A DNA stretch of 64,000 nt from an uncultured Clostridia bacterium. Lineage in GTDB: Bacteria; Bacillota; Clostridia; Christensenellales; HGM11417. The notes under the pieces were generated by a model. The model saw only the letters and a program-made list of their open reading frames with translations. It did not search any database and had not been told where the DNA came from. Shown here in pieces: positions 7,027-56,135 of this stretch (its first letter is position 1; every line of letters starts with the position of its first letter). The translations under genes and the position numbers were made by a program. The stretch is from assembly GCA_944332455.1 (NCBI GenBank), contig CALVJY010000003.1, positions 49,988 to 113,987 on the forward strand. The letters run 5' to 3'.

Positions 7027-8400
7027 ATGAAGATGTGGAGCGGCCGCTTTGAAAGCGACACCGACCAGCTTGCCGACCAGTTCAACGCCTCTCTGCCCTT
7101 CGATCACCGCCTCTTTCGGGAGGACATCGAGGGCAGCGTGGCGCACTGCACCATGCTGGCCGAATGCGGAATTTTGACCGAAGAAGAGAAGGATCGCATC
7201 GTCCGGGAACTGAACGTCATCCGCGGGGAGATCGAGTCCGGCGCCTTTGAGATGTCCGGCTCCGAAGACGTCCACATGTGGGTGGAGGGCGAGCTCATCC
7301 GGCGGCTGGGCGAGGTCGGCAAAAAGCTGCACACCGCCCGCTCCCGGAACGACCAGGTGGCCACGGATTTTCGCCTCTATCTGAAGAAGAGCATCGGCCG
7401 GATCCGGGAACTGCTGAAAGGGCTGATCGGGACCCTGCTGGACCTGGCCGAGGCCCACACCGAGACCGTCATGCCGGGCTACACCCACCTGCAGAAGGCC
7501 CAGCCGGTCACCCTGGCTCACCATCTGGAGGCCTATGCCGAGATGTTTTTCCGGGACGTCCTGCGTTTTTCGGACTGTCTGAAGCGGACGGACGTCCTGC
7601 CCCTGGGGTCCTGCGCCCTGGCCGGGACCACCTATCCCATCCGCCGTGAGCGCACGGCCGAGCTTCTGGGCTTCTCGTCGGTCTGCCGCAACAGCATGGA
7701 CGGGGTCTCGGACCGGGACTTCGCGCTGGAATTTCTGTTCTGCTGCGCGACGGCGGCCATGCACCTGTCCAGGCTCTCGGAGGAGATCGTGCTGTGGAGC
7801 ACGGACGAATTCCGCTTCATCACCATCGCGGACAGCTATTCCACCGGCTCCTCCATCATGCCGCAGAAAAAAAACCCGGACATGGCCGAACTCATCCGGG
7901 GCAAGTGCGGGCGGGTCTACGGCAACCTGACCGCCCTGCTGACCGTCATGAAGGGGCTTCCCCTGGCCTACAACAAGGATATGCAGGAGGACAAGGAGCC
8001 CGTCTTTGACAGCGAGGACACCCTGACGATCTGCCTTCGGGTGATGGATCAGCTGCTCCGGCACATCACCTTCCACGGGGACCGCATGCGGGCGGGAGCT
8101 TTGGGCGGCTTTACCAACGCGACGGACGTGGCCGACTATCTGGTCCGGCACGGCCTCCCCTTCCGAACCGCCCACGAGATCACCGGAAAGCTGGTACTCC
8201 GGGCCGAAAAAGAGGGAAAACGGCTGGAAGAGCTTCCCCTTTCGGTCTTCCGCGAGTACTCGGAGGCCTTCGGGGAGGATATCCTCGGCTGCCTGGATCT
8301 GGACGCCGTGGTCAACGGCCGGAAAGTGACGGGCGGCCCCGCCAAAGAGGCAGTCACGCAGAGCATCCGGGCCCTTCGGGAGGCCCTGAAGGAGGCATAG
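7027..8400 (+). CDS. argH: Argininosuccinate lyase
   Basis: 457-aa ORF beginning MWSGRFESDTD, with the SSIMPQKKNPD fumarate-lyase signature. Confidence 0.95.
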   Translation: MKMWSGRFESDTDQLADQFNASLPFDHRLFREDIEGSVAHCTMLAECGILTEEEKDRIVRELNVIRGEIESGAFEMSGSEDVHMWVEGELIRRLGEVGKKLHTARSRNDQVATDFRLYLKKSIGRIRELLKGLIGTLLDLAEAHTETVMPGYTHLQKAQPVTLAHHLEAYAEMFFRDVLRFSDCLKRTDVLPLGSCALAGTTYPIRRERTAELLGFSSVCRNSMDGVSDRDFALEFLFCCATAAMHLSRLSEEIVLWSTDEFRFITIADSYSTGSSIMPQKKNPDMAELIRGKCGRVYGNLTALLTVMKGLPLAYNKDMQEDKEPVFDSEDTLTICLRVMDQLLRHITFHGDRMRAGALGGFTNATDVADYLVRHGLPFRTAHEITGKLVLRAEKEGKRLEELPLSVFREYSEAFGEDILGCLDLDAVVNGRKVTGGPAKEAVTQSIRALREALKEA

Positions 8401-8436
8401 TACTCTGCAAAGCCCTTAAAATGCAGAGTACTATGC
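8395..8436 (+). repeat. Palindromic dispersed repeat, copy a
   Basis: GCATAGTACTCTGCA-aagcccttaaaa-TGCAGAGTACTATGC, a perfect 15-bp inverted repeat. The argH stop TAG (8398-8400) lies inside the left arm. Confidence 0.9.
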
Positions 8437-8752
8437 CATCAAAATTGATCAAAAAGTCCATAAAAGAAGCCGGAAGCGGCGAGTTTTGGCCCCTTGCGAG
8501 CCGGCTGTAAAACAGCAGGACCCTTTCCTCCTCGGCTCAGAAGAGACAGGACAGAATGGTCAGGAACGGCCTTTCCTCGTTCAATTGCCGACCTTTTTCA
8601 GCCGGGAAGAAGCAGGACAGGCCTTGAGATCGCAAAAACAGGCAAAACCTACACACCGTCACCCGGATCCTCTTGCCCCTACTCTTCCCTGAACCACACA
8701 GCTGCCCTGCCCCTACCCTCCTGACAGCCAGACAAGTAAACAAAATCAGACC

Positions 8753-8778
8753 AGACAGCCCGAGCGGCTGTCTTTTTT
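8753..8778 (+). terminator. Intrinsic terminator about 350 nt downstream of argH
   Basis: AGACAGCC-cgagc-GGCTGTCT followed by TTTTTT. Confidence 0.65.
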
Positions 8779-8951
8779 CATGTCCTCGCGGCCGTTTTAC
8801 ATGGGGAAAATAAGGTCTTTCAGCATCGAACGCCTCCCTCAAGGGCTTTGCATAAATCTCCATTCAGGTTTTTTCTGAAAAAATATGCTTTTCAACCTTT
8901 TAAATCGCTCAAGCCTTCTTTGATTCGACAACAGAGGCAACCTTCTTTTTC

Positions 8952-8978
8952 ACCCTTTCCCCCTCCGGCACATATATT
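8952..8978 (+). promoter_or_regulatory. Candidate mother-cell (sigma-K/E type) promoter of the collagen-like gene
   Basis: AC at 8952-8953, a 17-nt spacer, then CATATATT at 8971-8978. This fits AC-17-CATAnnnT. RBS AAAGGAGG and the ATG at 9020 follow. Confidence 0.35.
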
Positions 8979-9019
8979 GAAAAAGAGGCGGCACCTACAT
9001 ATCACAAAGGAGGTCTGTT

Positions 9020-10567
9020 ATGTACAACTGTTTCTGCCGTCTGTGCGGATGCAATCCCTGTCGCTGCCAGCGTTCTGTGCAATGCGGTCCCACCGGTCCT
9101 ACCGGTCCCACCGGACCGCGGGGCATTCCCGGCCCCACCGGGCCCACCGGACCGGCCTCGGAGACCATCACGATCGCCCAGACCATTACGGGCGCCCCCG
9201 GTACCGCAGCCAGTGTCACGGACACCGGCGGCCCCAATCATATTCTGACTTTTACCATTCCCCAAGGCCTCACCGGGCCTGCCGGCCCTGCCGGACCCGC
9301 GGGGGCTACCGGCGCAACCGGAGCAACCGGAGCAACCGGAGCTACGGGTGCCGCGGGAGCAACAGGTCCGACCGGACCTACCGGACCCGCGGGAGCAACC
9401 GGCGCGACGGGCGCAACAGGAGCTACCGGCCCGACCGGCCCCACCGGTCCCACAGGCCCCGCAGGAGCAACGGGAGCAACCGGAGCTACGGGTGCAACAG
9501 GCGCCACGGGTGCTACCGGGGCTACAGGCCCCACCGGACCCACCGGTCCCGCGGGAGCAACCGGCGCTACGGGCGCAACAGGCGCTGCCGGAGCAACCGG
9601 TCCGACCGGGCCCACCGGGCCTGCGGGTGCAACCGGCGCTACGGGCGCAACAGGCGCCACGGGTGCTACCGGGGCTACAGGTCCTACCGGGCCCACCGGG
9701 CCCGCGGGAGCAACGGGGGCCACAGGTGCTGCAGGAGCCGCAGGGCCTATCGGTCCAACCGGTCCTACAGGTCCCACAGGTCCTGCGGGTACAACCGGGG
9801 CTACGGGCGCCGCCGGGGCTACAGGTCCTACCGGGCCCACCGGACCCGCGGGAGCAACCGGAGCTACGGGCGCAACGGGCGCTGCGGGAGCAACAGGTCC
9901 TACCGGGCCCACCGGGCCCGCGGGAGCAACCGGAGCTACGGGCGCAACGGGCGCTGCCGGAGCAACCGGTCCGACCGGACCCACCGGACCCGCGGGAGCA
10001 ACCGGAGCTACGGGCGCAACGGGCGCCGCCGGGGCTACAGGTCCGACCGGACCCACCGGACCCGCGGGCGCTACCGGTGCCACGGGCGCAACGGGCGCTG
10101 CCGGAGCTACCGGACCTACCGGCCCAACCGGGCCGACCGGACCCACCGGACCCAGCGCTGTTACCAACGCCCTGGCTGCCATCAACGCGAGCGCCCAGAC
10201 ACCGGCCTCCGCCGACACCGAACTGACCTTTACCACGAACAATTACACCTCCGGAACCGGCATCACCCGCTCCGATCCCAACACCATCACGCTGGCTCAG
10301 CCCGGGCTTTATCTCATCTCCTACCGTACCACCGCCAGCGCCGCTTCCGGCACCCCGCTGAACGCTTCGGTCCGGTTGGAAGCCAACGCCACCCCCATCG
10401 CCAATTCGGAGAGCACCGTCAATCTGGCCACCGCCTCCACAAACTACACCTTGGAAAAGACGTTGACGACCACCGTTCAAAACGCAGACACCGAACTTTC
10501 GCTGATCGCCGAGACCCCCAACGTCTCCTATACCGACACCGAAATAACCGTCGTCAAACTGACCTGA
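9020..10567 (+). CDS. Collagen triple-helix repeat protein, BclA-like (putative spore-surface glycoprotein)
   Basis: 515 aa. Domain order: a 22-aa N-terminus with 7 Cys ([22 protein letters not shown]); 7 GXY triplets; a 37-aa insert ([37 protein letters not shown]); about 98 uninterrupted GXY triplets ([12 protein letters not shown]); and a 137-aa Thr/Ser/Asn-rich C-terminal domain. Confidence 0.85.
9266..10153 (+). repeat. 9-bp GXY codon repeat array with a 72-bp higher-order unit
   Basis: The 24-aa unit [24 protein letters not shown] is repeated at least four times consecutively near the 3' end (about 9846-10133). The copies are nearly identical at DNA level. Confidence 0.9.
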
Positions 10568-10835
10568 CGAAAAGACCTGTGCCGCGGGCTTTTGCCCGCG
10601 GCGCAGTCAAAACAGCAGTATAAATTTTATTATAAATTATTTTTGAATAATTTAATATAGAGTGAAAAATTCAAAATTGATCTTTGCACTGCCTAAGCTT
10701 CCGTATCATGAAAAACTTTTACCGCAGAGAACGGATTCTTTCTTTCTGCCATAGCTGATTTGAACCTTGCTAAGAACCTTTACCAGATGAAAGACTTTCA
10801 TCGCATGTACCCGGTCAATTTGACCTGTTTTGGAA

Positions 10836-11960
10836 ATGAAAAAAATCTGCGTCTATGCCATCTGCAAGAACGAGGAAACCTTTGCGGAATCCTGGGTGGA
10901 ATCCATGTCCGAAGCCGACGTCATCGTGGTGCTGGACACCGGCTCCACCGACCGGACCGTGGAGCTGCTGAAAAAGCATCCCAAGGTGCAGGTCTGTCAG
11001 CAGATCATCCGCCCCTGGCGGTTTGACGTCGCCCGGAACGCCTGCCTGGATCTCACGCCGGAGGACGCCGACATTCTGGTCTGCACCGATCTGGACGAGC
11101 GCTTTGAAAGGGGCTGGCGGGCCGACCTGGAGGCCCATTGGACCGACCGGACCACCCGGGCCAGCTACCGCTACACCTGGAATTTTCTGCCGGACGGCCG
11201 GGAGGGCGTGGTGTTCTGGATCGACAAGATCCACAGCCGGAAGGATCACCGCTGGGTCCATCCCGTGCACGAAGTCCTTCACTGGACCGGATCGGGCGAG
11301 GAAGTGTACTGCTATCCGCCGAATATCCGCCTTTATCACCATGCCGATCCCGCCAAATCACGGGCGCAATACCTGCCGCTGCTCGAACTTTCGGCCCGCG
11401 AGGATCCCCTGGATGACCGCAACATGCACTATCTCGGCCGGGAGTATCTGTTCCGAGGCGAATGGGAAAAGTGCATCGAAACCCTGCAAAAGCACCTGCT
11501 GCTCCCCACTGCCCGCTGGGCGGATGAGCGGGCGGCCTCCATGCGCTACATCGCCAAAAGCCTGACCCAGCTCGGAGACAACGCCTCGGCCAGATCCTGG
11601 CTGCTGCGGGCGGTGGCCGAGGCCCCTCATCTGCGCGAGCCCTACCTCGACCTGGCGCTGCTGCTGGCCCGGCAGAAGGAATGGGAGGGCTGCCTTTGGC
11701 TGTGCAAGGGCGCGCTGAAGATCGAGACCCGTTCCCAGTCCTACATCAACGAGGCCGAGTCCTGGGGCTCCCTCCCCTTTGATCTGGCGGCCTTCGCCTG
11801 CTACCATCTGGACAGACCGGAAGAGGCAGTCGCCTTTGCCTCCCGCGCCCTGGAGCAGGAACCGGACAACGAGCGGCTGAAGCGGGATCTGGACTGTTAC
11901 CGAGCCGCGCTGACCGCGCAGCAGACAAAAGAGCGCACCCCGGATCAGGGCGCGCTCTGA
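10836..11960 (+). CDS. Family-2 glycosyltransferase with C-terminal TPR domain
   Basis: N-terminal ICVYAICKNEE...VVLDTGSTDRT...CTDLDERF matches the GT-A fold with a DxD motif. The C-terminal half is TPR-like (YLGREYLFRGEWEKCIETLQKHL...). The start could be TTG 10830 or ATG 10836. Confidence 0.75.
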   Translation: MKKICVYAICKNEETFAESWVESMSEADVIVVLDTGSTDRTVELLKKHPKVQVCQQIIRPWRFDVARNACLDLTPEDADILVCTDLDERFERGWRADLEAHWTDRTTRASYRYTWNFLPDGREGVVFWIDKIHSRKDHRWVHPVHEVLHWTGSGEEVYCYPPNIRLYHHADPAKSRAQYLPLLELSAREDPLDDRNMHYLGREYLFRGEWEKCIETLQKHLLLPTARWADERAASMRYIAKSLTQLGDNASARSWLLRAVAEAPHLREPYLDLALLLARQKEWEGCLWLCKGALKIETRSQSYINEAESWGSLPFDLAAFACYHLDRPEEAVAFASRALEQEPDNERLKRDLDCYRAALTAQQTKERTPDQGAL

Positions 11961-11982
11961 GTATCGTCTTTACTCTTTCATC

Positions 11983-12028
11983 CCGCATAGTACTTCAAAA
12001 ATCTGAGGATTTGCATAGTACTATGCGG
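11983..12028 (+). repeat. Palindromic dispersed repeat, copy b (also a likely terminator of the collagen/GT unit)
   Basis: CCGCATAGTACT-22 nt-AGTACTATGCGG followed by AAATTTTTTGC. It lies 23 nt after the GT stop. Confidence 0.85.
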
Positions 12029-12261
12029 AAATTTTTTGCTGTTTTTTAAAAATTCCGGACTTTGGAAAACTCCCTTTCAGGTTTTCGGCCGTCGGCCCGC
12101 CGTATTTTTTCATCCCTGATCAAGCCCCCATCGCTTCAGGATTTCATGCGAGCCGCCGAAGTCCTGCCACAGGCAATCGTTACCTCTGCCCTCCCCTTTC
12201 GACCCCGTCATTGGGCCGAATGAAGTCCGGCATTCTCAGGCGCGGGAGCTGATTTCCGTTC

Positions 12262-13278
12262 TTATTTGTTCCGGTAGAAGTCCGCCACCGCGCCGAAGTA
12301 GGCGTCGATGTTCTCCCACTTGGAGAGCGGCGGGATGTCGCAGCCCGAGGAGATGACAAAGTTCGGCCACTTGGCGCAGCGCTCCAGCAGATCCAGCGTA
12401 GCTTTGCGGATGGACTCCGGCGTGCCGTTGCGGAACTGTCCGGCGGGGTCAATGTTGCCCATGATGACCGTCCCCTCGGGGGCCTTTTTCAGCATGTCCT
12501 CGATGTCGATGGCGTTGCCGAAGTGATAGGCGCCCGCGCCCAATCCGAACAGGGAATCCGCCATGTAGACCACTTTGTCTCCGCAGTTGTGGTAGATGAC
12601 CAGGAAATTTTCGTCCTGCACGGCGTCGATGATCTGCTTGACGTAGGGGGCGGAAAACTCCCGCTCCAGGTCGGGCGAGAGCAGGCCGGCCAGCGGTTCG
12701 GCGATGACCACGCCGTTGGCTCCCCTCTCCTTGTAGGCCCTGACATAGTCGGTCAGAAAGGCCGCGGCCTTGCCGAGCACTTCGTGCATCATGTCCGGCT
12801 CGTCGTAGCAGTAGATCATGGCCTCGGTCACGTCGACCAGGCGCCCGGTCAGCGAAAAGGGACCGATGACGCCGGCAAACACCGGACGGTCGGTGATCAG
12901 CCTGACGGCTTTTTGGATGGCGTCGAGATAGATCCCGGTCCGGCCGGCCCCCACCTCGGGCACCTTCAGCGCCTTGGCTTCCTCCTCCGAGGAGACCACA
13001 TGGCCGATCACGGTGGGCACTTCGTCTTCGGAGACCAGGATTTTGGAACCGAAGCACTCGGCCTCCACCGACAGATCCATCAGGCTGACCGAAGCCAGCG
13101 AATCCACCCGGTCGGCAATTTTTTTCATGCCTTCCGCCTGGTTGTCGCTGTCTGAGATCAGATCCTTGACCGTGATGCCCATCAGCTGCACGCTGGGGAA
13201 GGAGAGAATGGGCATGGTCTTTTTGACCGGAGACGCTTTGAGTTCGTTCAGCCACTGGGTCATGTTGCGTTTGGACAT
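12262..13278 (-). CDS. Uroporphyrinogen decarboxylase (URO-D) family protein, MtaA/CmuA-like methyltransferase
   Basis: Start trimmed to ATG 13278 (RBS GAGGT). The overall pattern (PILSFPSVQLMG...GVIGPFSLTG...VIAEPLAG...YHNCG...ISSGCDIP) fits the URO-D/MtaA fold. Confidence 0.7.
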   Translation of the reverse strand: MSKRNMTQWLNELKASPVKKTMPILSFPSVQLMGITVKDLISDSDNQAEGMKKIADRVDSLASVSLMDLSVEAECFGSKILVSEDEVPTVIGHVVSSEEEAKALKVPEVGAGRTGIYLDAIQKAVRLITDRPVFAGVIGPFSLTGRLVDVTEAMIYCYDEPDMMHEVLGKAAAFLTDYVRAYKERGANGVVIAEPLAGLLSPDLEREFSAPYVKQIIDAVQDENFLVIYHNCGDKVVYMADSLFGLGAGAYHFGNAIDIEDMLKKAPEGTVIMGNIDPAGQFRNGTPESIRKATLDLLERCAKWPNFVISSGCDIPPLSKWENIDAYFGAVADFYRNK

Positions 13279-13281
13279 AAA

Positions 13282-13315
13282 AATAACCTCGACATTTGTG
13301 TTTGTCGAGGTTATT
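13282..13315 (-). terminator. 13-bp perfect hairpin between the HD gene and the URO-D gene, enclosing the URO-D Shine-Dalgarno
   Basis: AATAACCTCGACA-tttgtgtt-TGTCGAGGTTATT. On the mRNA strand the 3' arm carries GAGGU and is followed by UUUUUAUG. Confidence 0.55.
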
Positions 13316-13419
13316 ATACACATTTTAAGGGGGTTTTACAAATGATTGGCTTTGCTTTCGGGAAAGCCGCCAAAACCTTCCCCCTCGCGCGCAACTTTTT
13401 CCCTCTTTTCCCTTCTCGC

Positions 13420-23013: not shown

Positions 23014-23110
23014 CAGCAGAGTAGCTTAAGGTGCGTTAAGTGTTGCGGGATGGGATGTTGCCCGCAAACGAAAGAAGAAATTCTGCGGTACCTTTTGCGC
23101 GTCCGTTGCA
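23014..23110 (+). promoter_or_regulatory. THF (tetrahydrofolate, folT-motif) riboswitch aptamer
   Basis: The conserved blocks appear in order: AGAGTAG ... GCGTTAAGTG ... hairpin TTGCGGG/CCCGCAA around ATGGGATGT ... ACGAA ... GCGGT ... GCGCGTCCGTTGC. They match my recollection of the THF-I consensus (Rfam RF01831, Eubacterium siraeum structure). An ECF S-component gene lies downstream. Confidence 0.8.
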
Positions 23111-23180: not shown

Positions 23181-23789
23181 ATGTCCAAAAGGCTTTCACC
23201 GACTGCCAGGCTGACCTACGCCGCCGTGCTGACCGCCCTCTGCGTGGTCTGCAACTGCTTCACCGTCACCTTTCCCGGCAGTCCCCAGGCGCTCTCCTTC
23301 AACTATGTGCCCACTTTTCTGGCCGGCATCATCCTGGGTCCCTTCTGGGGACTGGCCGTCGGCCTGTTGGGCGACGTGCTGGGGGCCATCGTGCACCCGC
23401 TGGGGCCCTATCTGCCCCTCATCGGCCTGGCCTCCGCCCTCATGGGCGGCATTCCGGGCGCCGTGTTCCGCTGGGTCAAGGGAAACGACTATGTCAAACT
23501 GACCCTCAGCCTGCTGCTGGTCTTTGTGATCTGCTCCGCCGGACTGAACACCTATGCCCTGTACGCGGCTTACGCGGCCTCCGGCGGCAAGACCTTTTGG
23601 GTCTATCTGTCCGCGCGGCTCCCCATGCAGGCTCTCGTTCTGGTCATCAACGCCGCCATTCTGTTTGCTCTGCGGGCCAGCCGCCTGCTCGAGCGCCTGC
23701 GCCTGATCCCCGCCCAGGCAAAACCCCGGGATCCCGGAAGCAAGGAAGGCGCTCCCTCGGACGCCCCCTCCGACCTCCCCAAGACCTGA
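23181..23789 (+). CDS. folT: ECF transporter S component, folate family
   Basis: Start trimmed to ATG 23181 (RBS GGGAGG). About 202 aa. A multi-TM small S-component pattern, directly preceded by a THF riboswitch. Confidence 0.75.
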   Translation: MSKRLSPTARLTYAAVLTALCVVCNCFTVTFPGSPQALSFNYVPTFLAGIILGPFWGLAVGLLGDVLGAIVHPLGPYLPLIGLASALMGGIPGAVFRWVKGNDYVKLTLSLLLVFVICSAGLNTYALYAAYAASGGKTFWVYLSARLPMQALVLVINAAILFALRASRLLERLRLIPAQAKPRDPGSKEGAPSDAPSDLPKT

Positions 23790-27799: not shown

Positions 27800-27933
27800 G
27801 GCGATCGTTCTCCTTTTCGTTTTTCGGCGATCGGCGGCGCTCCCCTAGGGTTCCGCCTTTTCATTTTTTTCTATTATACCACAACAGTCCCGATTTTTCA
27901 ACTCAACCGGGCGCCTGTCCGGTTGAAATTCCC

Positions 27934-27971
27934 GCATAGTACTATGCAAAACACCCTGTTTTCATAGTACT
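27934..27971 (+). repeat. Palindromic dispersed repeat, copy c
   Basis: GCATAGTACTATGCAAAACACCCTGTTTTCATAGTACT, preceded by CCC. Confidence 0.9.
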
Positions 27972-28199
27972 TACAGAAAAATCAGGGGCTTTCCTTGGAG
28001 GCGAAAATCCGAGCCTTGACAATTCCAAGTATGAAAGTTACTTTGGAAAACCTCTTGGCTATTTTCGCAAATCTGACAGATCATGTGTTGCGCAGCGGTG
28101 AATTTTGTTCTTGAAACCTCGTTTTGCTCCCCTCTGCAAAACCCCTTTTGCGTAAATGTGCGGCCAAATCAAAAACGCCCTTTCCCTTGCGCAAGACGA

Positions 28200-29438
28200 T
28201 CAGAGCAAAGAGACGGCCACGCCCTCGGGACGGATCTCCTCTGCCCGCGCACGCACCGGCAGACCGCAGGGGGCCTCCCGGATCAGGCAGGGCAGGTAGT
28301 TTCGGCTGTAGCCCGTAAGCATGCCGTCCTCCCCCCGCTCCTCGAAGATGACCTCCTGCTCCCGGCCCAGCTGGCTCTTCCAAAAGCTCGCCCGGCAGTC
28401 GGCGCGGACCGCTTCCAGACGGGCGGCGCGGTCGCGGAGCACTTCCTTGGGCAGGGGCTTTTGTTTACCTGCCGCCGTCCCCTCCCGGGAGGAATAGGGA
28501 AAGATATGCAGGTCCGAAAAGGCGGCGGCCCGGCAGACCTCCACCGTTCGGGCAAAGTCCTCCTCCCGCTCGGAGGGAAAGCCCACGATGACGTCCGTGG
28601 TCAGGCCGGCCTCCGGGAAGGCCTCCCGGATGAGCCGCACCGCCCGGAGAAATTCCTCCCCCGTGTAGTGGCGGTTCATGTCCTTCAGCACCCGATCCGA
28701 ACCCGACTGCAGGGAGAGATGAAAGTGGGGACAGAAGTTGGGCATGTCGGCCAGCGCGGCCAACAGCTCCGGCGTGACGGCGTGGACCTCCAGCGAGCCC
28801 AGCCGGATGCGGGCGGAGATCCCCTTCAGCGCCCGCATCAGTTCGGGAAGAGAACTGCCGATGTTCTTCCCGTAGTCGGACAGATTGATGCCGGTCAGGA
28901 CGATCTCGGCCGCCCCGCAGGCGTTGGCCTCGGCCAGAATGCTCGGGATCTCCCGGCTCCGGCTCCGCCCCCGCAGGTAGGGCACGATGCAGTAGGAGCA
29001 GAAATTGTCGCAGCCGTCCTGCACCTTCAGATAGGCCCGGGTGTGCACCCGGGCGGGATGAAAACAGTCCTCGTAGGCGGCGGGCGGGTCCGCCAGAAAG
29101 GCCCCGCAGCGATCCAGCATGCCCAAAAAGGCGGTCTTTCGGAAATTCCCGGTCACCAGAAGGGAAGGATCTTTGCGGAGAAAGGCCTGCGGATCCTTTT
29201 GGGAGGCACAGCCGCAGATCACGGTCTTGGCTTCCGGATTGAGCTTTTTGATCTTGGCCAGTACCTGCCTGGACTTCCGCTCGGCCTCGGCAGTCACCGC
29301 GCAGGTGTTGACCACATAGAGGTCGGCCGGCTCCAGCCCTTCCGCCACCTCATAGCCCGCCCGCTGCAGGGCGTCGATGATCCCGAAACTTTCGTATTGA
29401 TTGAGCTTGCACCCCAGAGTGTACACGCAGGCCTTCAT
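28200..29438 (-). CDS. mtaB: tRNA t6A37 methylthiotransferase MtaB (radical SAM)
   Basis: 412 aa beginning MKACVYTLGCKLNQYES, with radical-SAM motif CDNFCSYC. Position after prmA-rsmE matches Bacillus yqeT-yqeU-yqeV. Confidence 0.88.
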   Translation of the reverse strand: MKACVYTLGCKLNQYESFGIIDALQRAGYEVAEGLEPADLYVVNTCAVTAEAERKSRQVLAKIKKLNPEAKTVICGCASQKDPQAFLRKDPSLLVTGNFRKTAFLGMLDRCGAFLADPPAAYEDCFHPARVHTRAYLKVQDGCDNFCSYCIVPYLRGRSRSREIPSILAEANACGAAEIVLTGINLSDYGKNIGSSLPELMRALKGISARIRLGSLEVHAVTPELLAALADMPNFCPHFHLSLQSGSDRVLKDMNRHYTGEEFLRAVRLIREAFPEAGLTTDVIVGFPSEREEDFARTVEVCRAAAFSDLHIFPYSSREGTAAGKQKPLPKEVLRDRAARLEAVRADCRASFWKSQLGREQEVIFEERGEDGMLTGYSRNYLPCLIREAPCGLPVRARAEEIRPEGVAVSLL

Positions 29439-47570: not shown

Positions 47571-47608
47571 GCATAGTACTCTGCAAAACACCCATTTTGC
47601 AGAGTACT
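47571..47608 (+). repeat. Palindromic dispersed repeat, copy d
   Basis: GCATAGTACTCTGCAAAA-caccca-TTTTGCAGAGTACT, a perfect 14-bp stem, followed by TTTTTC. Lies in the spoIIIAE/AF spacer. Confidence 0.9.
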
Positions 47609-47644
47609 TTTTCTGAAAAGGCCCTTTCGGCCCTCCGCTTTCCC

Positions 47645-49236: not shown

Positions 49237-49239
49237 GGC

Positions 49240-49437
49240 CTAGTAAAGCGAAAAGAGATTTTTCAGGGTGTCGAACAGGGTGCCGATCATGCCGATGACC
49301 ATGCTCAGCACGATGACCAGCCCCGCCAGTGTGGTCAGGGTGGCCAGCTCCTCCTTGTCCGCCTTTTTCAGGATCTGACAGCACACCGCAGTCAGGATCC
49401 CGATGGCCGCGATCTTGAAGATGACCTCAACTTCCAT
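49240..49437 (-). CDS. spoIIIAC: Stage III sporulation protein AC
   Basis: 65 aa. IFKIAAIGILTAVCCQILKKADKEE... matches SpoIIIAC. Confidence 0.85.
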   Translation of the reverse strand: MEVEVIFKIAAIGILTAVCCQILKKADKEELATLTTLAGLVIVLSMVIGMIGTLFDTLKNLFSLY

Positions 49438-49450
49438 GCCTTGTCCCCTT

Positions 49451-49924
49451 TTACAGTAAAACGATACAGATCAAAAGTCCGGCCGTGAACCCCAGCTTGA
49501 CGTACATCGCGGCAAACTTCCTGCGCTCCCGCTCGGCCTCCTGCCGCAGCCGGGAAAACTCCTCCTCCGCCCGGGCCAGGATCTCCCCGGTCCGGCCGGC
49601 GTCCGATTTTCCCAGGGCCCGCAGCAGCTCGCACAGCCGCCGGAATTCCTCCTCCTTGAGGCCTGGATTCGGAAGGGGCTTTTCCCCGCCCTCCAGTCCC
49701 GCCACAAAGGCCCCGAGCAGATCCGAAAGGGTGCCAAGCTCCTCTCCCGCCCGCAGCAGAGCCGCGGGCAGGCGCTCCCGGAAGAAACAGAGGTCGTCCT
49801 TGAGCCGTACGATCAGCCGGAGGATCTCCCCCAGGATCTCCTCCCGGCGGAAGTAGGTGCGGGAGACGGCATAGCCGCAGTAGGTGGTGCAGGCCACGAT
49901 GCAGGCGCAGAGCAGGACGATCAT
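49451..49924 (-). CDS. spoIIIAB: Stage III sporulation protein AB
   Basis: 157 aa. TM helices at both termini and a helical middle region. Position fits. Confidence 0.75.
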   Translation of the reverse strand: MIVLLCACIVACTTYCGYAVSRTYFRREEILGEILRLIVRLKDDLCFFRERLPAALLRAGEELGTLSDLLGAFVAGLEGGEKPLPNPGLKEEEFRRLCELLRALGKSDAGRTGEILARAEEEFSRLRQEAERERRKFAAMYVKLGFTAGLLICIVLL

Positions 49925-50796
49925 TGCAGGGCATAGACCAACCGGGATCCGGCGTCGAACAGCCCCTCCACCGTGCCCCGGCCCCGCGCGGAGGAGAGCA
50001 CCGCAAAGCGCTCGAAGTAGCCGGCCGGAAAACCCTTCTTTTTCAGGTCAGACAGCCCCCCGGCGTGCACGGTGGCCACCACGCCCACGCCGGCCGCCTC
50101 CGCCTCCTTCAGAAAGGGAAGGTCCTCCTCCCCCCGAAGTTCGTCGCAGAGCACAAAATCCGGCGCCATGGCCCGGATCCCCATCAAAAAGCCCTCCCGC
50201 TTGGAGCAGTTTTTCAGGACGTCCAGATCCTGGGTCCCGGGCAGGCAGAGCTCGCCCCGCTCGTCCAGGAGCAGCACGTTCTTGCCCTCCCCGCTCAAAA
50301 GCCGGGCGACGTCCCGCAAAAGGGTGGTCTTGCCTCCCCCCGGCGGGGAGAGGATGAGCAGTTTTGTGACCCCGCTCCGGAAGGTCTCCGTCAAAAAGGA
50401 GGCGCACCCCCGGACCTCATGGGGCAGGCGGATGAGCAGGGCGTTGAGGTTTTTGAGGGCGGTCACCCGGCCCCGCTCGGTCACGCATTCCCCGCACAGT
50501 CCCAGGCGGATCCCCTCGCCCACGCTCAGAAAACCCTCCCGGATCTGGTGTTCATAGGCGTGCACCGAGTGATCGCAGGCCCGCAGAAAGATCCCGTCCA
50601 GGACCTCCCGGGAGGCCCTGACGGCCTGTCCCCGGTTCAGGGTCAGTCCCACGGGCGAACAAAAATACCGCCCCTGCGCGGTCTCGGCGAAGATCGGGCA
50701 GTTCAGCCGCAGGCGGATCTCAAAGATCTTTTCCTCGGCCTGCAGGCAGGCGTGCAGCGCAGGCGGCAGGATCTTTTTGAGGACGCTTTCTTTCAT
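49921..50796 (-). CDS. spoIIIAA: Stage III sporulation protein AA (secretion-type ATPase)
   Basis: 291 aa. ILPPALHACL...EIRLRLNCP at the N-terminus and Walker A SPPGGGKTTLLRD. Confidence 0.85.
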   Translation of the reverse strand: MKESVLKKILPPALHACLQAEEKIFEIRLRLNCPIFAETAQGRYFCSPVGLTLNRGQAVRASREVLDGIFLRACDHSVHAYEHQIREGFLSVGEGIRLGLCGECVTERGRVTALKNLNALLIRLPHEVRGCASFLTETFRSGVTKLLILSPPGGGKTTLLRDVARLLSGEGKNVLLLDERGELCLPGTQDLDVLKNCSKREGFLMGIRAMAPDFVLCDELRGEEDLPFLKEAEAAGVGVVATVHAGGLSDLKKKGFPAGYFERFAVLSSARGRGTVEGLFDAGSRLVYALQ

Positions 50797-50802
50797 ACCC
50801 TT

Positions 50803-50831
50803 ACCCTATGACGGACTTGTCCCGAATATGC
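50803..50831 (-). promoter_or_regulatory. Mother-cell (sigma-E type) promoter candidate abutting the spoIIIAA ATG
   Basis: On the minus strand: GCATATT-14 nt-CATAGGGT, then only 6 nt (AAGGGT) before the ATG. Confidence 0.4.
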
Positions 50832-50912
50832 CCGCTCCAGCCCCGATCTTCCCGTTTTTTTCTCATTTAAAAAGGAGGTCCCGGCCCGCTTCTGAATAAA
50901 TTTTAAAATATA

Positions 50913-50927
50913 AAAATGTTCAATAAT
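50913..50927 (-). repeat. AT-rich 15-mer motif copy (reverse complement ATTATTGAACATTTT)
   Basis: Read directly. One mismatch to the exact 15-mer. Confidence 0.8.
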
Positions 50928-51441
50928 GATTTTATTTTTAATTTTTATATATTTTCTCTTCGTCCGGAACAGAAAACCTCAGCCCTTCCGTCTGTCGACG
51001 GTTCATGGTATGCCTGATACAGCGGAAGGGCTTGTCACTGATTGCATTTTTCCTTTGCGTTTTTCGTGTCCCGGCAGGAAACGTGGTCGCCTCAGCCCGT
51101 CTCGGTTCAGGGCCTGCCAAAACCAAAAGGTCTTGGCTATGATCCTAGTTTTCTTATGTTAGATCCCGATTCCGGGGAAATGCTCCCGCCCTGTTTTGAC
51201 CCGACCTTTCGAGGCGGAATCTTATCCACGATCTTATTTTCGTTTCCTGTCCCGGCAGGGCCCCTTTGGCCCCGGTTCCGAAATGCATGAAAAGACCGAT
51301 CTTTGAAAACCGCGAAGCGGGCGCCCCTTTGTCTCTCCCGCGCGCCGCTGCAACAAAGTCCTGCGGCGCGCGCAACCTTCGCCTCTCCCATAAGCCGCTC
51401 ACAGACAAGGTCCTGCGGCGCTCGTTTTCGTCCGGCTTTTC

Positions 51442-51470
51442 GCATAATTTCGGGCCGATCTCTCATACTA
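51442..51470 (+). promoter_or_regulatory. Forespore (sigma-G type) promoter candidate abutting the DUF421 ATG
   Basis: GCATA-17 nt-CATACTA, then 8 nt before ATG 51479. I see no Shine-Dalgarno. Confidence 0.45.
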
Positions 51471-51478
51471 AGACCGGT

Positions 51479-52183
51479 ATGTACATCGTCTTTTTCCGAA
51501 GCATTTTTATCTTCGTCATTCTGCTGATCGTCATCCGGCTGATGGGCAAGCGGCAGATCGGGGAGATGCAGCCCTTCGAGCTGACCATCACCCTGATCAT
51601 CGCCGACCTTGCCACCATTCCGATGTCGGACACCTCCATCCCCCTGCTCTACGGGGTGGTCAGCATTTTTACCCTGTTCATCCTCCATCAGGTGATCAGC
51701 CTGATCGAGCGAAAGAGCCGTTTTCTGTCCGGGATCATCTCGGGGACGCCCACCATCGTCATCAACTCCAAGGGGGTCAACTTTCGGGAGATCGAAAGGC
51801 AGAATCTGAGCATTGACGACCTGCTGGAGAGCATCAGGGGAGCGGGCTACTCCAGCTTTGACGAGATCGCCTTTGCCATTTTCGAGACCAACGGCAAGCT
51901 GAGCGTCATTCCCAAAAAATCGGGAGATAAAAAGCCGGACCAGGCCGACAAGGCCGAACTGCCCATCGTGGTGATCGAACAGGGCAAGATCTCCGAACAA
52001 CAGCTGAAGGTGATGAAGCTGACCCCCGATTGGATCCGGGCCCGCCTCCGGGAACAGTCGATCCGGGATCTGAAAAAGGTGGAACTCTGCACTTTGGACA
52101 ACCACGGCAAGATGTTCCTGCAGATCAAGGACAAGGGGTACGAAGTGCTGAAAACGGACTACGAAGGGGGTGTGATCTGGTGA
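51479..52183 (+). CDS. DUF421 domain membrane protein (YetF/YdfS-like)
   Basis: Start trimmed to ATG 51479. MYIVFFRSIFIFVILLIVIRLMGKRQIGEMQPFELTITLIIADLA is the family N-terminus. Confidence 0.8.
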   Translation: MYIVFFRSIFIFVILLIVIRLMGKRQIGEMQPFELTITLIIADLATIPMSDTSIPLLYGVVSIFTLFILHQVISLIERKSRFLSGIISGTPTIVINSKGVNFREIERQNLSIDDLLESIRGAGYSSFDEIAFAIFETNGKLSVIPKKSGDKKPDQADKAELPIVVIEQGKISEQQLKVMKLTPDWIRARLREQSIRDLKKVELCTLDNHGKMFLQIKDKGYEVLKTDYEGGVIW

Positions 52184-52554
52184 AAAACTGGCTGATCCCC
52201 CTCCTCTTTCTGGCGCTGATCGTGGGCGGCGGCGTGCTGGAACAGGTGACCCTGAGCCGGCAGTTCGAGACCTTTGACCGCGAACTGGACGCCCTGGCCC
52301 AAAAGATCGAACAAAAGACGGCCACCGAGGAGGAAATGGACGAATTGGAACGGTGGTGGGACGAGGCAAAAAAGGTCATGCACACCTACATCCCCCACAC
52401 CGAGATCCGGGAGATCGACTACTGGCTGGCCGAGGCCAAAAGCCTGGTCAGGACCGGAAACTTTGAGCTGGCGGACGCCAAACTGACCGTGCTGCGCACC
52501 ATCACCTCCGCCCTGCCCGACAACTTCCGCATCAATTTTGAAAACCTTTTGTAA
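52180..52554 (+). CDS. DUF4363 family protein
   Basis: GTG start at 52180, overlapping the DUF421 stop (GTGA). About 124 aa, with an N-terminal TM and a helical body. The DUF421/DUF4363 pairing is typical. Confidence 0.7.
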   Translation: MKNWLIPLLFLALIVGGGVLEQVTLSRQFETFDRELDALAQKIEQKTATEEEMDELERWWDEAKKVMHTYIPHTEIREIDYWLAEAKSLVRTGNFELADAKLTVLRTITSALPDNFRINFENLL

Positions 52555-52560
52555 GACAAA

Positions 52561-52589
52561 AGACCTCCCCAGAAGGAAGGTCTTTTTTT
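52561..52589 (+). terminator. Intrinsic terminator after the DUF4363 gene
   Basis: AGACCTCC-ccagaa-GGAAGGTCT followed by TTTTTTT. Confidence 0.7.
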
Positions 52590-52610
52590 GCTATTTTTTT
52601 GATATAAATT

Positions 52611-52625
52611 ATTATTGAAAATTTT
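52611..52625 (+). repeat. AT-rich 15-mer motif copy, exact ATTATTGAAAATTTT
   Basis: Read directly. Confidence 0.9.
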
Positions 52626-52646
52626 ATGATAACAAATTCTTGTGCT

Positions 52647-53273
52647 TCAGAGGAGCCAAAACAGCAGGGCGGCGCACAGCCCCCACCCCAAGAGGAGGCA
52701 CAGCGCGAAGATCAGCCAAGACGGCGCGGACAACGGCTCTTCGTCCGGTCCGCCCGCCGGCAGCACCCGTCCGGAGAGAGAATCCAGCACCCAGAAACCG
52801 CCCTGCGGACGGGAGACAGCCGCCTGCCAGACGGGGAGAAAGCACAGACACTCGACCCGCTCCTCCTGTTTGAAAAAGGAAGAGCCGGGTTCCCCGTTTT
52901 CCGCGGAGGGAAAGAGCCTCCCCTCGTCCAGGGCCACCCGGTCGATTTCCCCCGGCGCGGCCTCGCGGCGCCAGCGGCGAAGCCGGCCGGCCGGTGCGTT
53001 CAGCGCCCGGAGCTTTTTTCCCCTGCGCACAAAGATCACCGGATAGTAGGCCCTTTGGATCTCTGCCTCCCGGAAGTCCGGCATTTTCCGGCGGCAGAGG
53101 GAGAGGATCTCCTCCTCCCCCTCGGGCCGGCCGCAGACAAACACCTTTCCTTCCCGCCGGAGGCGTTCGATCTCGCAGAGGCAGTCGCTGCTCAGCCCTT
53201 CGTAGTCCAGCAGACAGAGGGGCCTGGCCCTCCCCTTCGCCCCCGACTTTTTTTCGTTTGACGCCCGCTTCAT
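52647..53273 (-). CDS. Hypothetical tail-anchored membrane protein (208 aa)
   Basis: Start trimmed to ATG 53273. Arg/Cys-rich soluble part and a single C-terminal TM (WLIFALCLLLGWGLCAALLFWLL). I recognise no family. Confidence 0.45.
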   Translation of the reverse strand: MKRASNEKKSGAKGRARPLCLLDYEGLSSDCLCEIERLRREGKVFVCGRPEGEEEILSLCRRKMPDFREAEIQRAYYPVIFVRRGKKLRALNAPAGRLRRWRREAAPGEIDRVALDEGRLFPSAENGEPGSSFFKQEERVECLCFLPVWQAAVSRPQGGFWVLDSLSGRVLPAGGPDEEPLSAPSWLIFALCLLLGWGLCAALLFWLL

Positions 53274-53375
53274 CCTTTGTCTGATCCCTCGTTTTCGTCC
53301 CTTCGCTGCCTCTATTATATACGAATATTTTTCGTAAGTCAATAATTTTACGAATATTTTTAGTAAAATCAAGGT

Positions 53376-53582
53376 ATGGAAAAAATTACTTTGCGCATCC
53401 GGGAACTTCGGAAGGAGCGGAAGATGACCCAGACCCAGCTGGCAGAACTTCTGGCCACCACCCAGGACACCGTTTCGCTGTGGGAGCTGGGCAAAAGCTA
53501 CCCCGACATCCCCTCTCTGGTCCGGCTGTGCGACATCTTCGACGTCTCGGCGGACTATCTTTTGGGACGGTCCGACTACTGA
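53376..53582 (+). CDS. XRE-family helix-turn-helix transcriptional regulator (68 aa)
   Basis: LRIRELRKERKMTQTQLAELLATTQDTVSLWELGKSYPDIPSLVRLCDIFDVSADYLLG is a canonical HTH_3 domain. Confidence 0.85.
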   Translation: MEKITLRIRELRKERKMTQTQLAELLATTQDTVSLWELGKSYPDIPSLVRLCDIFDVSADYLLGRSDY

Positions 53583-54032
53583 ACAAGTTTGCCCGTCGCC
53601 ATCCCGGAGAGAAATTTCCGGCAATTTCCTTTCCCTCCTGAAGTCCTTTTCACGGCCGCTCCCGGCCGCCCGGAAAGAACGCCCGCGGCTGCTGCCGTAC
53701 CATCTCGCAATCATTCACGGCTGCCGGCGCATCATTCCTAAAATCATTCACGGATTGGCTCGCCATCCCGGAATGGTCTTCGTCCGTCCTGCCCTCCCGG
53801 AGCCTTCCGGTTTCTTTCCTGGCCGAAGAAGTTCCCGCTTGTCCTTTCCCCGGAGGCCGACTTTTCCGCCTCCCGAAGGAAAACCCGCCCCCTCTCCCGC
53901 AGAATTTTTTCCGCTTCTGCCGATCCGGCCCGCCTTTCAGGGCCGCTTTCACGTTCTGATCGTCAAGGGACAAAAAAAGAACGCGCTCCCTCGGTTCGCG
54001 TTCTTTTTTCCATAAAATCCGGACATAAAAAG

Positions 54033-54047
54033 ATTATTGAAAATTTT
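54033..54047 (+). repeat. AT-rich 15-mer motif copy, exact ATTATTGAAAATTTT
   Basis: Read directly. Confidence 0.9.
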
Positions 54048-54216
54048 AAGGCAGCACTGCACGAAGATTGTGTGCGGATTGCGCAGTCAGATTTTTCCCA
54101 ATTCGTCCAAAATCGACGCAGGAATACTGAACGTATTTCAAGGAGATTTTGGGCCAAGTGGCGGAAAACCAAGCAAGGCGTTCAAAGCCGTCAGGCGGTC
54201 TTTGGGCGGGGATGCC

Positions 54217-55125
54217 TTAAGATCTCTGTTTGGAGCTGCGCCTGACAAAATGGACCAGCAGATCTATCGCCAGAAAGAGCAGCACGGTGCCGGCGAAGAT
54301 CCAGAGCATTTCCCCCAGGCCGATGGTGGCGCCGAAGAAGTCCATGTTCATGGAGAAGCCTTCCCGCAGGCCCTCGGCGGCAGGCGGAACGGAAGCGGCG
54401 ATCTCGCTTAAAGCGCCGTTCATGAACAGATTGCGGAAGGCCCCGGCCGAATAGGTGCCGGGGATGAAGAGCACCAGGTACTGCACCGCGGTCGGAAAGA
54501 CCGAAATGGGCATGTAGGCGCCGGTCAGAAAGCCGATGGCCGCGCTGAGGATCCCCACAAAGGCGCCGTGTGCGTTGGTGCTTTTGAAGAAGGAGCAGAC
54601 CAGCGTGCTGATCAGGGCGGCCGAGAGCACCGAGAGCAGGGTCAGGCCGAGGATGCCGAACACGTCCCCCGCCGAAAGGTACCAGCCCGAAAAGGCCAGA
54701 TAGCCGAACGAGACGGCCAGCACCACCAGGCAGATGACCGCCGTGACCACCACGTTGCTGACGAAGTAGGCAAAGGTCACGGTCTGCCTCCCCACCGGGG
54801 AAACCAGAATGTCCGAGAGCACGTTCCGCTCCCGGTCGGCGATCATGATGTTCTGGGCCGAAAAGGAGACGGTGATGCAGGAGACCGCCATGACGCCGGC
54901 CAGCATCCAGCCGTCCACAAAGGCGCGGAGCACGTTTTCCTCCACCGGAACGCCCTGCAGGGCGGCCTCGGCGCTGGACATCTGGACCTCGCCCAGAAAC
55001 AGCACGTAAAGGAGCAGCACGATGAGCGGGGCCAGCAGGGAGAAGAACACCCCCACCTTGTCCCGGAGAAAGATGCGCAGGCTGCGCCCCACCAGCCGGC
55101 CCATAGCCAGAAGTTCGCCCTTCAT
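54217..55125 (-). CDS. ABC-2 type transporter permease
   Basis: 302 aa with a 6-TM ABC-2 pattern. Its start overlaps the ATPase stop. Confidence 0.8.
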   Translation of the reverse strand: MKGELLAMGRLVGRSLRIFLRDKVGVFFSLLAPLIVLLLYVLFLGEVQMSSAEAALQGVPVEENVLRAFVDGWMLAGVMAVSCITVSFSAQNIMIADRERNVLSDILVSPVGRQTVTFAYFVSNVVVTAVICLVVLAVSFGYLAFSGWYLSAGDVFGILGLTLLSVLSAALISTLVCSFFKSTNAHGAFVGILSAAIGFLTGAYMPISVFPTAVQYLVLFIPGTYSAGAFRNLFMNGALSEIAASVPPAAEGLREGFSMNMDFFGATIGLGEMLWIFAGTVLLFLAIDLLVHFVRRSSKQRS

Positions 55126-56054
55126 TCCGCATCCTCCTTCAGCTGTTTTCCGGTTACCTTCAAAAAGACGTCGTCCATGTCTCCCTTGACCACCTCGAAG
55201 TCGTCGATCTCCCGGTCGAAGCGCCGCAGCACCTCCTTGGCCGCCCGGCTGTCCGCCACCGGAAGCAGGTAGCAGTTCTGCTCGTAGACGGGTGCAAAGG
55301 GGGAAAAGGCGGCGTCCAGCTGAGGCGATCTGGGGGCGTAGACCCGGACATAGTCCGAACAGAAGCGCTCCTTCAGCCGCACCGGCGAATCCTGGGCCGC
55401 GATCCGGCCGGCGTCCAGAATGACCACATTGTCGGCCCGGTTGGCCTCCTCCATGTAGTGGGTGGTCAGAAACACGGTCATCCCCCGCTGTTTCCGCAGC
55501 CCCTCCAGCACCGACCAGACCGTCTTGCGGGTCTGCGGGTCCAGCCCGGTGGTCGGCTCGTCCAGAATGAGCAGGGAGGGCTGATGCAGCAGCGCCCGGG
55601 CAATGTCCGCCCGCCGGCGCTGGCCGCCCGAAAGAGTCCCGTAACGCCGGTCCAGAATGTCGGAGAGCGCAAGTTCCTCGGACAGCTCCTTCAGCCTTTC
55701 GGACCAGGCCCTGCCGGACAGGCCGTACAGGCCGGCCCGCACGGAAAGATTGTCCCGGATCGACAGGGCGTTGTCCAACACCGAGCCCTGAAAGACCACA
55801 CCGATCTCCCGCCGGATCTTTTCCGGCTCGCGGTCCAGGTCGAACCCGGCCGCCGACACCCTGCCCTCGTCCTTGGGAAGCAGGGTGCAGACGATGTTGA
55901 TGGTGGTGCTCTTGCCCGCCCCGTTCAGTCCCAGAAAGGCGAACAGGCTGCCCTGCTCCACCGAGAAGGAGATCCCGTCCACGGCGCGGACCTCCCCGAA
56001 ATGTTTTTTTAATCCCTCGATCTCCAGGATCTTCAATTGCCTTCCTCCAACCAT
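55122..56054 (-). CDS. ABC transporter ATP-binding protein (DrrA-like)
   Basis: Walker A GLNGAGKST, signature LSGGQRRR and Walker B LLILDEPT. An alternative TTG start at 56036 follows GGAGGAAGG. Confidence 0.9.
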   Translation of the reverse strand: MVGGRQLKILEIEGLKKHFGEVRAVDGISFSVEQGSLFAFLGLNGAGKSTTINIVCTLLPKDEGRVSAAGFDLDREPEKIRREIGVVFQGSVLDNALSIRDNLSVRAGLYGLSGRAWSERLKELSEELALSDILDRRYGTLSGGQRRRADIARALLHQPSLLILDEPTTGLDPQTRKTVWSVLEGLRKQRGMTVFLTTHYMEEANRADNVVILDAGRIAAQDSPVRLKERFCSDYVRVYAPRSPQLDAAFSPFAPVYEQNCYLLPVADSRAAKEVLRRFDREIDDFEVVKGDMDDVFLKVTGKQLKEDAE

Positions 56055-56097
56055 CGCGATTTTGGGGACTTTTCCTGAAAATCCCGCGTTTATCCTT

Positions 56098-56135
56098 GCA
56101 TAGTACTATGCAAAACCCCGGTTTTTCACAGTACT
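56098..56135 (+). repeat. Palindromic dispersed repeat, copy e (degenerate right arm)
   Basis: GCATAGTACTATGCAAAACCCCGGTTTTTCACAGTACT, followed by TTTTCC. Lies 44 nt upstream of the ABC ATPase ATG. Confidence 0.85.

Follow-up and report, generated by a model that had tools for sequence, protein, structure and literature searches.

What is the short palindrome that recurs between the genes of an uncultured Clostridia bacterium, and to which class of bacterial repeats does it belong? The question is raised by a 64,000-nucleotide stretch of contig CALVJY010000003.1 (the window), for which a preliminary description had listed five copies of an approximately 45-bp dispersed palindromic repeat, here called copies a to e. 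The description had likened them to repetitive extragenic palindromic (REP) sequences and their clusters, the bacterial interspersed mosaic elements (BIMEs), or to a miniature mobile hairpin. Re-reading the sequence of the window found all five copies where they had been placed (Table 1). They form a genuine, non-random family of small palindromic repeats, previously undescribed, whose host is an uncultured Clostridia lineage that forms spores. As to its nature, we see roughly even chances that it is a lineage-specific family of small, GCAT-tagged repeats that resemble REPs and their doublets (REPINs) and whose copies were acquired by insertion and have since been retained by selection. In Proteobacteria, REP-type repeats have been studied extensively; we found none described for Clostridia. 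The family sits in sporulation and heat-shock operons with a core that is constant across species, and it offers an entry point for studying how uncultured gut Clostridia control gene expression post-transcriptionally or structure their genomes, as well as a marker for strain and species typing.

Detection and anatomy of the repeat

The pattern GCATAGTACT-N19-CANAGTACT fits each of the five copies and has zero matches in shuffled sequences. With at most one mismatch, GCATAGTACT alone matches 16 times in the 64-kb window, where 0.33 matches are expected. The hexamer AGTACT is found 13 times against an expectation of 1.85, and 10 of the 13 occurrences lie within repeat elements, always in pairs whose members are exactly 28 bp apart. 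The base composition of the window is 60% GC, with a GC skew that is negative throughout; in the ENA record it belongs to a 192-kb metagenome scaffold (ERZ28613748 scaffold_117). All five copies are intergenic, copy a sharing 6 nt with argH. A covariance model was built from eight copies, comprising the five of the window and three from a sister species (b', c', and d'); it detected no sixth copy in the window, and no copy was found in the 3 kb to the left of it. No hit of an Rfam covariance model overlapped a copy, whether the gathering threshold or an E-value limit of 5 was applied, and a literal search of the literature for the sequence strings returned unrelated matches only, judged by title and abstract. 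The earlier remark that the repeat is not a described family thus holds.

The unit consists of an invariant GCAT followed by a 34-nt inverted repeat of the form AGTACT-n-TGCAAAA / loop / TTTTGCA-n-AGTACT, so that inverted repeat and tag together have the size of a REP, a 20- to 40-bp imperfect palindrome outside genes. It can alternatively be described as two inverted TTGCAnAGTACTnTGCAA boxes with a centre-to-centre distance of 28 bp, and in all copies the two inverted units combine into a larger hairpin, as in a REPIN. The perfect form of the box, found in c' and as the left box of copy e, is the 18-bp palindrome TTGCATAGTACTATGCAA. The minus strand gives the consensus RAAAAGTACTnTG(C)AAAA-loop-TTTTGCAnAGTACTATGCRRGRA. 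The GCAT tetramer precedes the plus-strand hairpin in eight of eight copies and is fully paired in two of them only, its partner ATGC being restricted to a and b.

Folding of the copies gave z-scores between -4.7 and -7.4 relative to shuffled sequences, with the exception of copy e on the plus strand. The perfect 14-bp stem described for copy d was reproduced by the fold check. The stem of copy a is fully symmetric and reaches 16 bp if the pair G8394-C8437 is counted, and the arms of copy c are unequal, with one additional base (C) on the left.

The preliminary description had assigned all five copies to one orientation, independent of the neighbouring genes. The single orientation stands for c, d, and e, which are in the plus orientation, and falls for a and b. 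Copy a fits the pattern on both strands, and a model built without a and b scores it at 33.1 bits on the minus and 31.9 bits on the plus strand, showing no preference; the same model scores copy b higher when inverted (41.0 versus 29.1 bits). The independence from neighbouring genes has to be given up, as the transcription units that contain b, c, d, and e are all on the minus strand.

The hairpin itself had been thought to be conserved, because the CTATG/CATAG arms of copy c looked like a compensatory change relative to CTCTG/CAGAG. Across 20 pairs in the eight copies, pairing and covariation equal those of shuffle controls, and statistical covariation, sought on both strands, is not significant. 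The variable column pair is C-G in three copies, A-T in two, and unpaired in three. The difference between C-G and A-T marks subfamilies (C-G for a, d, and d'; A-T for c, e, and c'; T.T for b and b') and would represent one or two independent events at most. Cells compatible with G.U pairing number 9 on the minus (sense) strand and 3 on the plus strand, which may be taken as a weak hint in favour of the sense RNA strand.

This bias would suit a protein-bound regulatory RNA hairpin that serves mRNA processing or stability and that arose, or was recruited, independently of transposition. Copies c, d, e, b', c', and d' share their orientation relative to the local transcript, and the 3' arm together with AUGCRRG is conserved even where it is unpaired, both of which agree with such an RNA. 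The absence of covariation and of any Rfam family match speaks against it, as do the direct-repeat arrays of other lineages described below, which are not hairpins. As for the shared orientation, since c, d, and e all lie in minus-strand transcripts and on one replichore, with genes on the same strand and a uniform GC skew across the window, orientation relative to transcription and relative to replication are inseparable. Altogether we regard an RNA hairpin of this kind as improbable.

Position within transcription units

According to a map based on GC content at third codon positions and on gene tables, most real genes of the window are on the minus strand, and several long plus-strand open reading frames (ORFs) close to the copies are spurious. 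On this map every copy is predicted to lie within a transcription unit, a to d downstream of a stop codon and e in a 5' leader, which are REP-like locations.

Copy a provides, as had been stated, the last Ala codon and the stop (GCA-TAG) of the plus-strand gene argH, and lies within the argH 3' untranslated region (UTR). The approximately 316 bp between the copy and the argH terminator (8437-8752) are species specific and missing from the sister species; a 108-residue minus-strand ORF (8537-8863) without a Pfam match overlaps this segment.

Copy b is located between a plus-strand GT-TPR gene and a convergent minus-strand URO-D gene. The minus-strand terminator hairpin that follows beyond it, read from 11958 to 11930, places copy b inside the 3' UTR of the URO-D transcript. 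The neighbouring collagen-repeat gene and GT2-TPR glycosyltransferase (GT) gene form an exosporium-like pair (window 9020-11960; 8395-11660 in L278, where L plus a number labels a comparison locus). The collagen-like gene is uncalled in the sister-species contig. A GGCACATATATTGAAAAAGAGGCGGCA motif upstream of the pair is conserved in the sister species and resembles the -10 element of mother-cell sigma factors (CATAnnnT). We considered integron attC or Xer sites around this collagen/GT unit and rejected them because the sister species has the unit yet lacks copy a.

Copy c lies between a MiaB-like gene (28200-29438, minus strand), the last gene of an hrcA-grpE-dnaK-dnaJ-prmA-rsmE-miaB-like operon, and the HIT/rpsU promoter, which begins about 33 bp downstream of the copy in gene orientation. 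The interval between the MiaB-like gene and copy c contains no terminator. Most strains of the species have a segment of approximately 160 bp between the MiaB-like stop and copy c (27972-28199, compared with L259 9229-9320) that strain GCA_964327385.1 and the sister species lack.

The placement of copy d inside the spoIIIA operon was borne out; it occupies the 123 bp that separate the minus-strand genes spoIIIAE and spoIIIAF. Likewise, copy e is indeed 44 nt upstream of the ATG of an ABC ATPase gene at 56054, or 62 nt from the start given in the source record. A TTGACA-18-TATAAT promoter about 340 nt upstream puts copy e inside a 5' leader of about 400 nt that belongs to a minus-strand ABC transporter operon. 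Two perfect consensus promoters stand back to back here (56447-56476 on the minus and 56558-56586 on the plus strand). Directly right of copy d lies TTTTCTGAAAA (47609-47622), and TTTTCCTGAAAAT (56065-56078) lies left of copy e; both resemble the core of the CodY box, AATTTTCWGAAAATT, possibly by chance.

These positions bear on the simplest explanation, namely that the copies are ordinary intrinsic terminators, possibly bidirectional, whose common sequence is coincidental. The hairpins are strong, copy d was flagged as terminator-like on the plus strand, and copy b is trailed on the plus strand by AAATTTTTT, all of which a terminator would explain. The sense strand, however, has no U-tract at a, c, d, or e, and as c, d, and e lack one after the hairpin, we do not consider the copies ordinary terminators. 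Copies a and b have canonical terminators beyond them, d lies within an operon and e in a 5' leader, and upstream of c, d, or e there is no plus-strand gene end. Moreover, the AT-rich stems have a conserved sequence, which a terminator does not need. The preliminary description had itself named ordinary terminators of plus-strand transcripts as the reading that would overturn its own; judged by the positions and the U-tract check, this is very improbable.

Other assignments were tried and dropped. A by-eye comparison with promoter consensus sequences (sigma-A, sigma-E/K, sigma-F/G, and sigma-54) failed because the 28-bp period leaves a 24-nt spacer. The operators of Rex (7-4-7), FapR, NrdR, and AraR and the ARG box do not fit in geometry or sequence. 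A transcription factor operator in general does not agree with the promoter distances, which for copy c differ between the source species (about 33 bp) and the sister species (about 100 bp); copy b has convergent genes on its two sides, and the promoter of copy e is about 340 nt upstream of it.

Table 1. Repeat copies, neighbouring signals, and arrays of related words. Coordinates refer to the window unless a locus label is given.
Feature	Location	Strand	Remarks
Copy a	8395-8436	undefined	GCATAGTACTCTGCA-loop-TGCAGAGTACTATGC
Copy b	11985-12026	undefined	complete GCAT/ATGC box ends on both sides, inner left arm degenerate
Copy c	27934-27971	+	GCAT tag and hairpin
Copy d	47571-47608	+	GCAT tag and perfect 14-bp stem
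Copy e	56098-56135	+	left box is the perfect 18-bp palindrome TTGCATAGTACTATGCAA at 56096-56113
Copy b'	L278 11738-11775		sister-species orthologue of b
Copy c'	L258 9330-9367		sister-species orthologue of c
Copy d'	L279 3452-3489; L287 15604-15641		sister-species orthologue of d
Canonical intrinsic terminator of argH	8753-8779	+	about 320 nt past copy a
Terminator-like hairpin for the URO-D transcript	11930-11958	-	beyond copy b
Sigma-A-type promoter of HIT/rpsU	27873-27901	-	TTGAAA-17-TATAAT, extended -10
Consensus promoter	56447-56476	-	TTGACA-18-TATAAT; a transcript from here would include copy e
Core-word arrays in other Clostridia	L013-L254, e.g., L041 1909-1978; L022 5470-5501; L085; L030; L117; L083/L201		four clusters in L085
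GCATAGTACTCAATGGCACTTGA arrays, Prevotella UMGS903	L016, L037, L054, L064, L075, L076, L080, L081		
GCATAGTACTCAATGGCACTTGA arrays, metagenomes	many contigs, e.g., L139, L145, L168		

Gain, loss, and conservation in related species

Strains of the same species (more than 10) were found through look-ups of exact protein sequences, and copies c, d, and e are fixed in them. The few polymorphisms within the species spare the core; they affect arm column 35, the loop, or the flanks. The sister species is more distant, with 54% GC compared with 60% and an ArgH protein that is 86% identical; its SpoIIIAE falls into a 90%-identity cluster and has the identical sequence in L279 and L287. The element is present there at the sites orthologous to b, c, and d. 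Across the pairs b/b', c/c', and d/d', all 48 core positions (16 per pair) are identical at an unchanged 28-bp register, whereas each pair shares 11 to 15 of its 22 central positions and the flanks cannot be aligned. Next to b', a third and degenerate box, CTTGCATAGTCCTT, lies 21 bp away (L278 11717-11737), as if the end of the element had been duplicated locally in tandem (21 bp).

Comparing orthologous loci with and without the element, as the preliminary description had proposed, shows that its presence differs between related species. The sister species has no element at sites a and e: a canonical terminator follows its argH stop after about 35 nt, and the leader behind its promoter at site e is about 55 nt long. 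The additional 311 bp of the e leader (56136-56446) are missing from the sister species and unmatched in all compared data, and the leader around copy e is not unusually structured (z = -0.36). Copy d is missing from the outgroup loci L280 and L284, whose SpoIIIAE proteins are 59% and 67% identical; the spoIIIAE-spoIIIAF gap measures 13 and 10 bp there, compared with 123 and 166 bp where the element is present. The covariance model found zero copies in about 90 kb of outgroup loci. Because the sister species shares b, c, and d and the outgroup loci have no copies, the family appears to have arisen in, or entered, this clade. By the same comparison, copy d would have been inserted at the operon junction in the common ancestor of both species; copies were apparently gained or lost since that ancestor, with every retained copy under sequence constraint.

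Layout, position, and turnover together recall the REPs and REPINs of Proteobacteria (PMC3733652, PMC3337134, PMC5581495). REPs are mostly found downstream of genes, between unidirectional or convergent ORFs, where many are plausibly transcribed, and they carry an unpaired GTAG or CGTC tag at one end (PMC3733652). REPINs, the REP doublets, are thought to be mobilised by REP-associated tyrosine transposases (RAYTs) (PMC3337134), and Clostridia contain Group 1 RAYTs (PMC5581495). A 2013 survey of tagged REPs makes no mention of Firmicutes or Clostridia. RAYT-associated families number tens to hundreds of copies per genome and include a single-copy RAYT (Y1/HUH) gene that the repeat flanks; the count for the window is 5 copies in 64 kb. 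Like REPs, the Clostridia copies are small extragenic imperfect palindromes with a conserved, mostly unpaired tetramer at one end; like REPINs, they pair two inverted units into a larger hairpin. They lie inside predicted transcripts, at junctions of cistrons, in gaps where genes converge, and past the ends of genes, and they are restricted to a lineage within which presence and absence vary among related species. They differ from REPs in their GCAT tag, in a doublet of only about 40 to 46 bp in total, in the sequence conservation of single copies at orthologous sites, and in a core word that is common to lineages of 27 to 60% GC, many REP families being species specific. Their host, a spore-forming Clostridia lineage, is a further difference. 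Of the original proposal of a REP/BIME-like element or a miniature mobile hairpin, the layout, the positions, and the gain and loss of copies stand, and the covariation and uniform orientation do not.

The comparisons show that copies enter intergenic DNA within transcription units: a 5' leader, the junction of two cistrons, and 3' UTRs ahead of the true terminator. Once a copy is in place, its 16 core positions and their spacing are held while the centre and the flanks diverge. If the family is REP/REPIN-like, new copies probably arise from existing ones, with a resembling the d type and e the c type, and the agent is probably an enzyme that recognises the tagged hairpin in single-stranded DNA, like a RAYT or an IS200-type Y1 transposase. 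The copies would be transcribed together with the host mRNA, and a sequence-specific protein may recognise the conserved core. The hairpin could then act in a REP-like manner, as a barrier to 3'-to-5' decay or as a partial block between cistrons.

Several observations beside the missing covariation weigh against a REP/REPIN-like origin. The end motif is GCAT and not the GTAG or CGTC of REPs, so that the tag is analogous only; we file the family as REP/REPIN-like rather than as a proven RAYT system. Neither a RAYT nor another Y1 transposase (PF01797) occurs in the gene tables covering the window, from about -3 kb to 59.4 kb. Sequence conservation at single loci across species is unusual for purely selfish REPs. 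The empty sites a and e cannot be aligned base for base, and copies a and e are each accompanied by about 310 bp of unrelated additional DNA. We also considered these segments as parts of a larger mobile unit and rejected it, as the two are mutually unrelated and unmatched in all compared data.

The core word in other Clostridia

The word GCATAGTACT, often as the complete palindrome TGCATAGTACTATGCA (16 to 18 bp), recurs as intergenic arrays in many other Clostridia contigs with 27 to 58% GC. These loci came from scans with N{12,18} spacers in GTDB genomes and N{13,17} spacers in metagenomes, a range that leaves out the N19 register of the window copies; the scan pattern favoured direct repeats, and the statistics of array arrangement are biased accordingly. 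The periods found are 11, 12, and 21 to 24 bp. Beyond the match by which each contig had been selected, 175 kb of Clostridia-titled contigs (27 to 57% GC) contain 10 further GCATAGTACT clusters, with 0.38 expected, compared with 1 cluster in 204 kb of control loci from other phyla. The complete 16-mer palindrome occurs at at least 14 independent loci. The gene contexts of the arrays (16 convergent, 22 tandem, and 4 divergent) show an enrichment at gene 3' ends, and the arrays often adjoin terminators. One array lies inside the spoIIIA operon, at the spoIIIAB-spoIIIAC junction (L041), and two lie beside a dnaJ-to-miaB-like cluster (L018 and L096), the gene cluster of window copy c. A Borkfalkia array (L201) lies in a divergent promoter region. 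The genes next to the GCATAGTACT arrays include no transposase and have no common functional theme. Plasmid, phage, and IMG/VR collections gave no match to the core word, and viral contigs scanned with the N19 spacing and with the 18-mer gave nothing relevant.

Direct repeats at 11, 12, and 21 to 24 bp cannot form a hairpin, and a duplex-binding protein is therefore the simpler explanation for the arrays, which counts further against a REP/REPIN-like family. The same may hold for the window: the copies could be duplex DNA site arrays for a conserved Clostridial DNA-binding protein, with a dimer on each 18-bp TTGCATAGTACTATGCAA and two sites 28 bp apart, the hairpin potential then following incidentally from the inversion of palindromic sites. 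Such a protein might act as a regulator or a roadblock, or it might organise the chromosome. The conservation of core and spacing at orthologous sites with a diverged centre fits such sites, as does covariation that does not exceed sequence conservation. The over-represented 10-mer, the recurrence of the 16-mer palindrome, the direct-repeat periods, and the promoter location of the Borkfalkia array likewise agree with them. The window copies nevertheless overlap no promoter, lying in a convergent gap (b), at a stop codon (a), or within an operon (d), and the distance from c to the HIT promoter varies between the species. The arrays are enriched at gene 3' ends, and their neighbours have no functional theme in common. 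The inner half-sites of a and d have changed jointly (CTCTG/CAGAG), as expected of a hairpin. Taking both sides together, we consider duplex sites possible but rather unlikely.

A broader form of recognition would make TTGCATAGTACTATGCAA the word of a conserved Clostridia nucleic-acid-binding protein that marks where transcription units end, as well as junctions inside them, in genomes of 27 to 60% GC. The hairpins of the window would then be one lineage's arrangement, an inverted pair at 28 bp, and not selfish DNA. Uptake sequences and the sites of nucleoid-occlusion or gyrase-type factors would be the nearest analogies. We regard this as a doubtful, speculative proposal. Some sequence-specific reading of the core is compatible with a REP/REPIN-like family too: that the core word is common to many other Clostridia suggests recognition of the sequence and not of a hairpin alone, and its sharing by very different genomes, combined with the conservation at each locus, argues for a sequence-specific protein that reads the core. 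The 18-bp palindrome could serve as bait for this protein, and if a conserved host factor does read the word across Clostridia, a new genome-wide signal would be defined.

Three further classes of repeats invite comparison. BIMEs of enterobacteria are clusters of REPs to which IHF and gyrase bind and which stabilise the mRNA upstream of them. The Clostridia family resembles them in its palindromic units of alternating orientation, in its location in 3' UTRs and between cistrons, and, by analogy, in a plausible role in mRNA stability or partial attenuation, and differs in a far shorter unit and in lacking intervening conserved motifs (L, S, and similar). The DNA uptake sequences of Neisseria and Pasteurellaceae are words of 10 to 12 nt in clade-wide excess irrespective of the surrounding sequence, often in inverted pairs near gene 3' ends, all of which is reminiscent of the core word; its density in the window is, however, far lower, at about 1 box per 6 kb, and Firmicutes are not known to take up DNA in a sequence-specific manner. 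Miniature inverted-repeat transposable elements (MITEs), such as Correia/NEMIS and RUP, are likewise short, non-coding, intergenic inverted repeats co-transcribed with their neighbours. The Clostridia element is smaller than typical MITEs and has no known related insertion sequence, no transposase among the array neighbours, and no match in the plasmid, phage, and IMG/VR collections. We rejected a MITE, as no direct repeat indicative of a target-site duplication flanks any copy.

Two observations stand apart from the family. An unrelated 23-bp tandem repeat, GCATAGTACTCAATGGCACTTGA, which shares only the 10-mer with it, forms arrays in an uncultured Prevotella genome, often at contig ends. Within the window, a tetrahydrofolate (THF) riboswitch (Rfam RF01831, 80 bits) is found at 23015-23110 on the plus strand, upstream of an ECF-type transporter gene (23181-23789).

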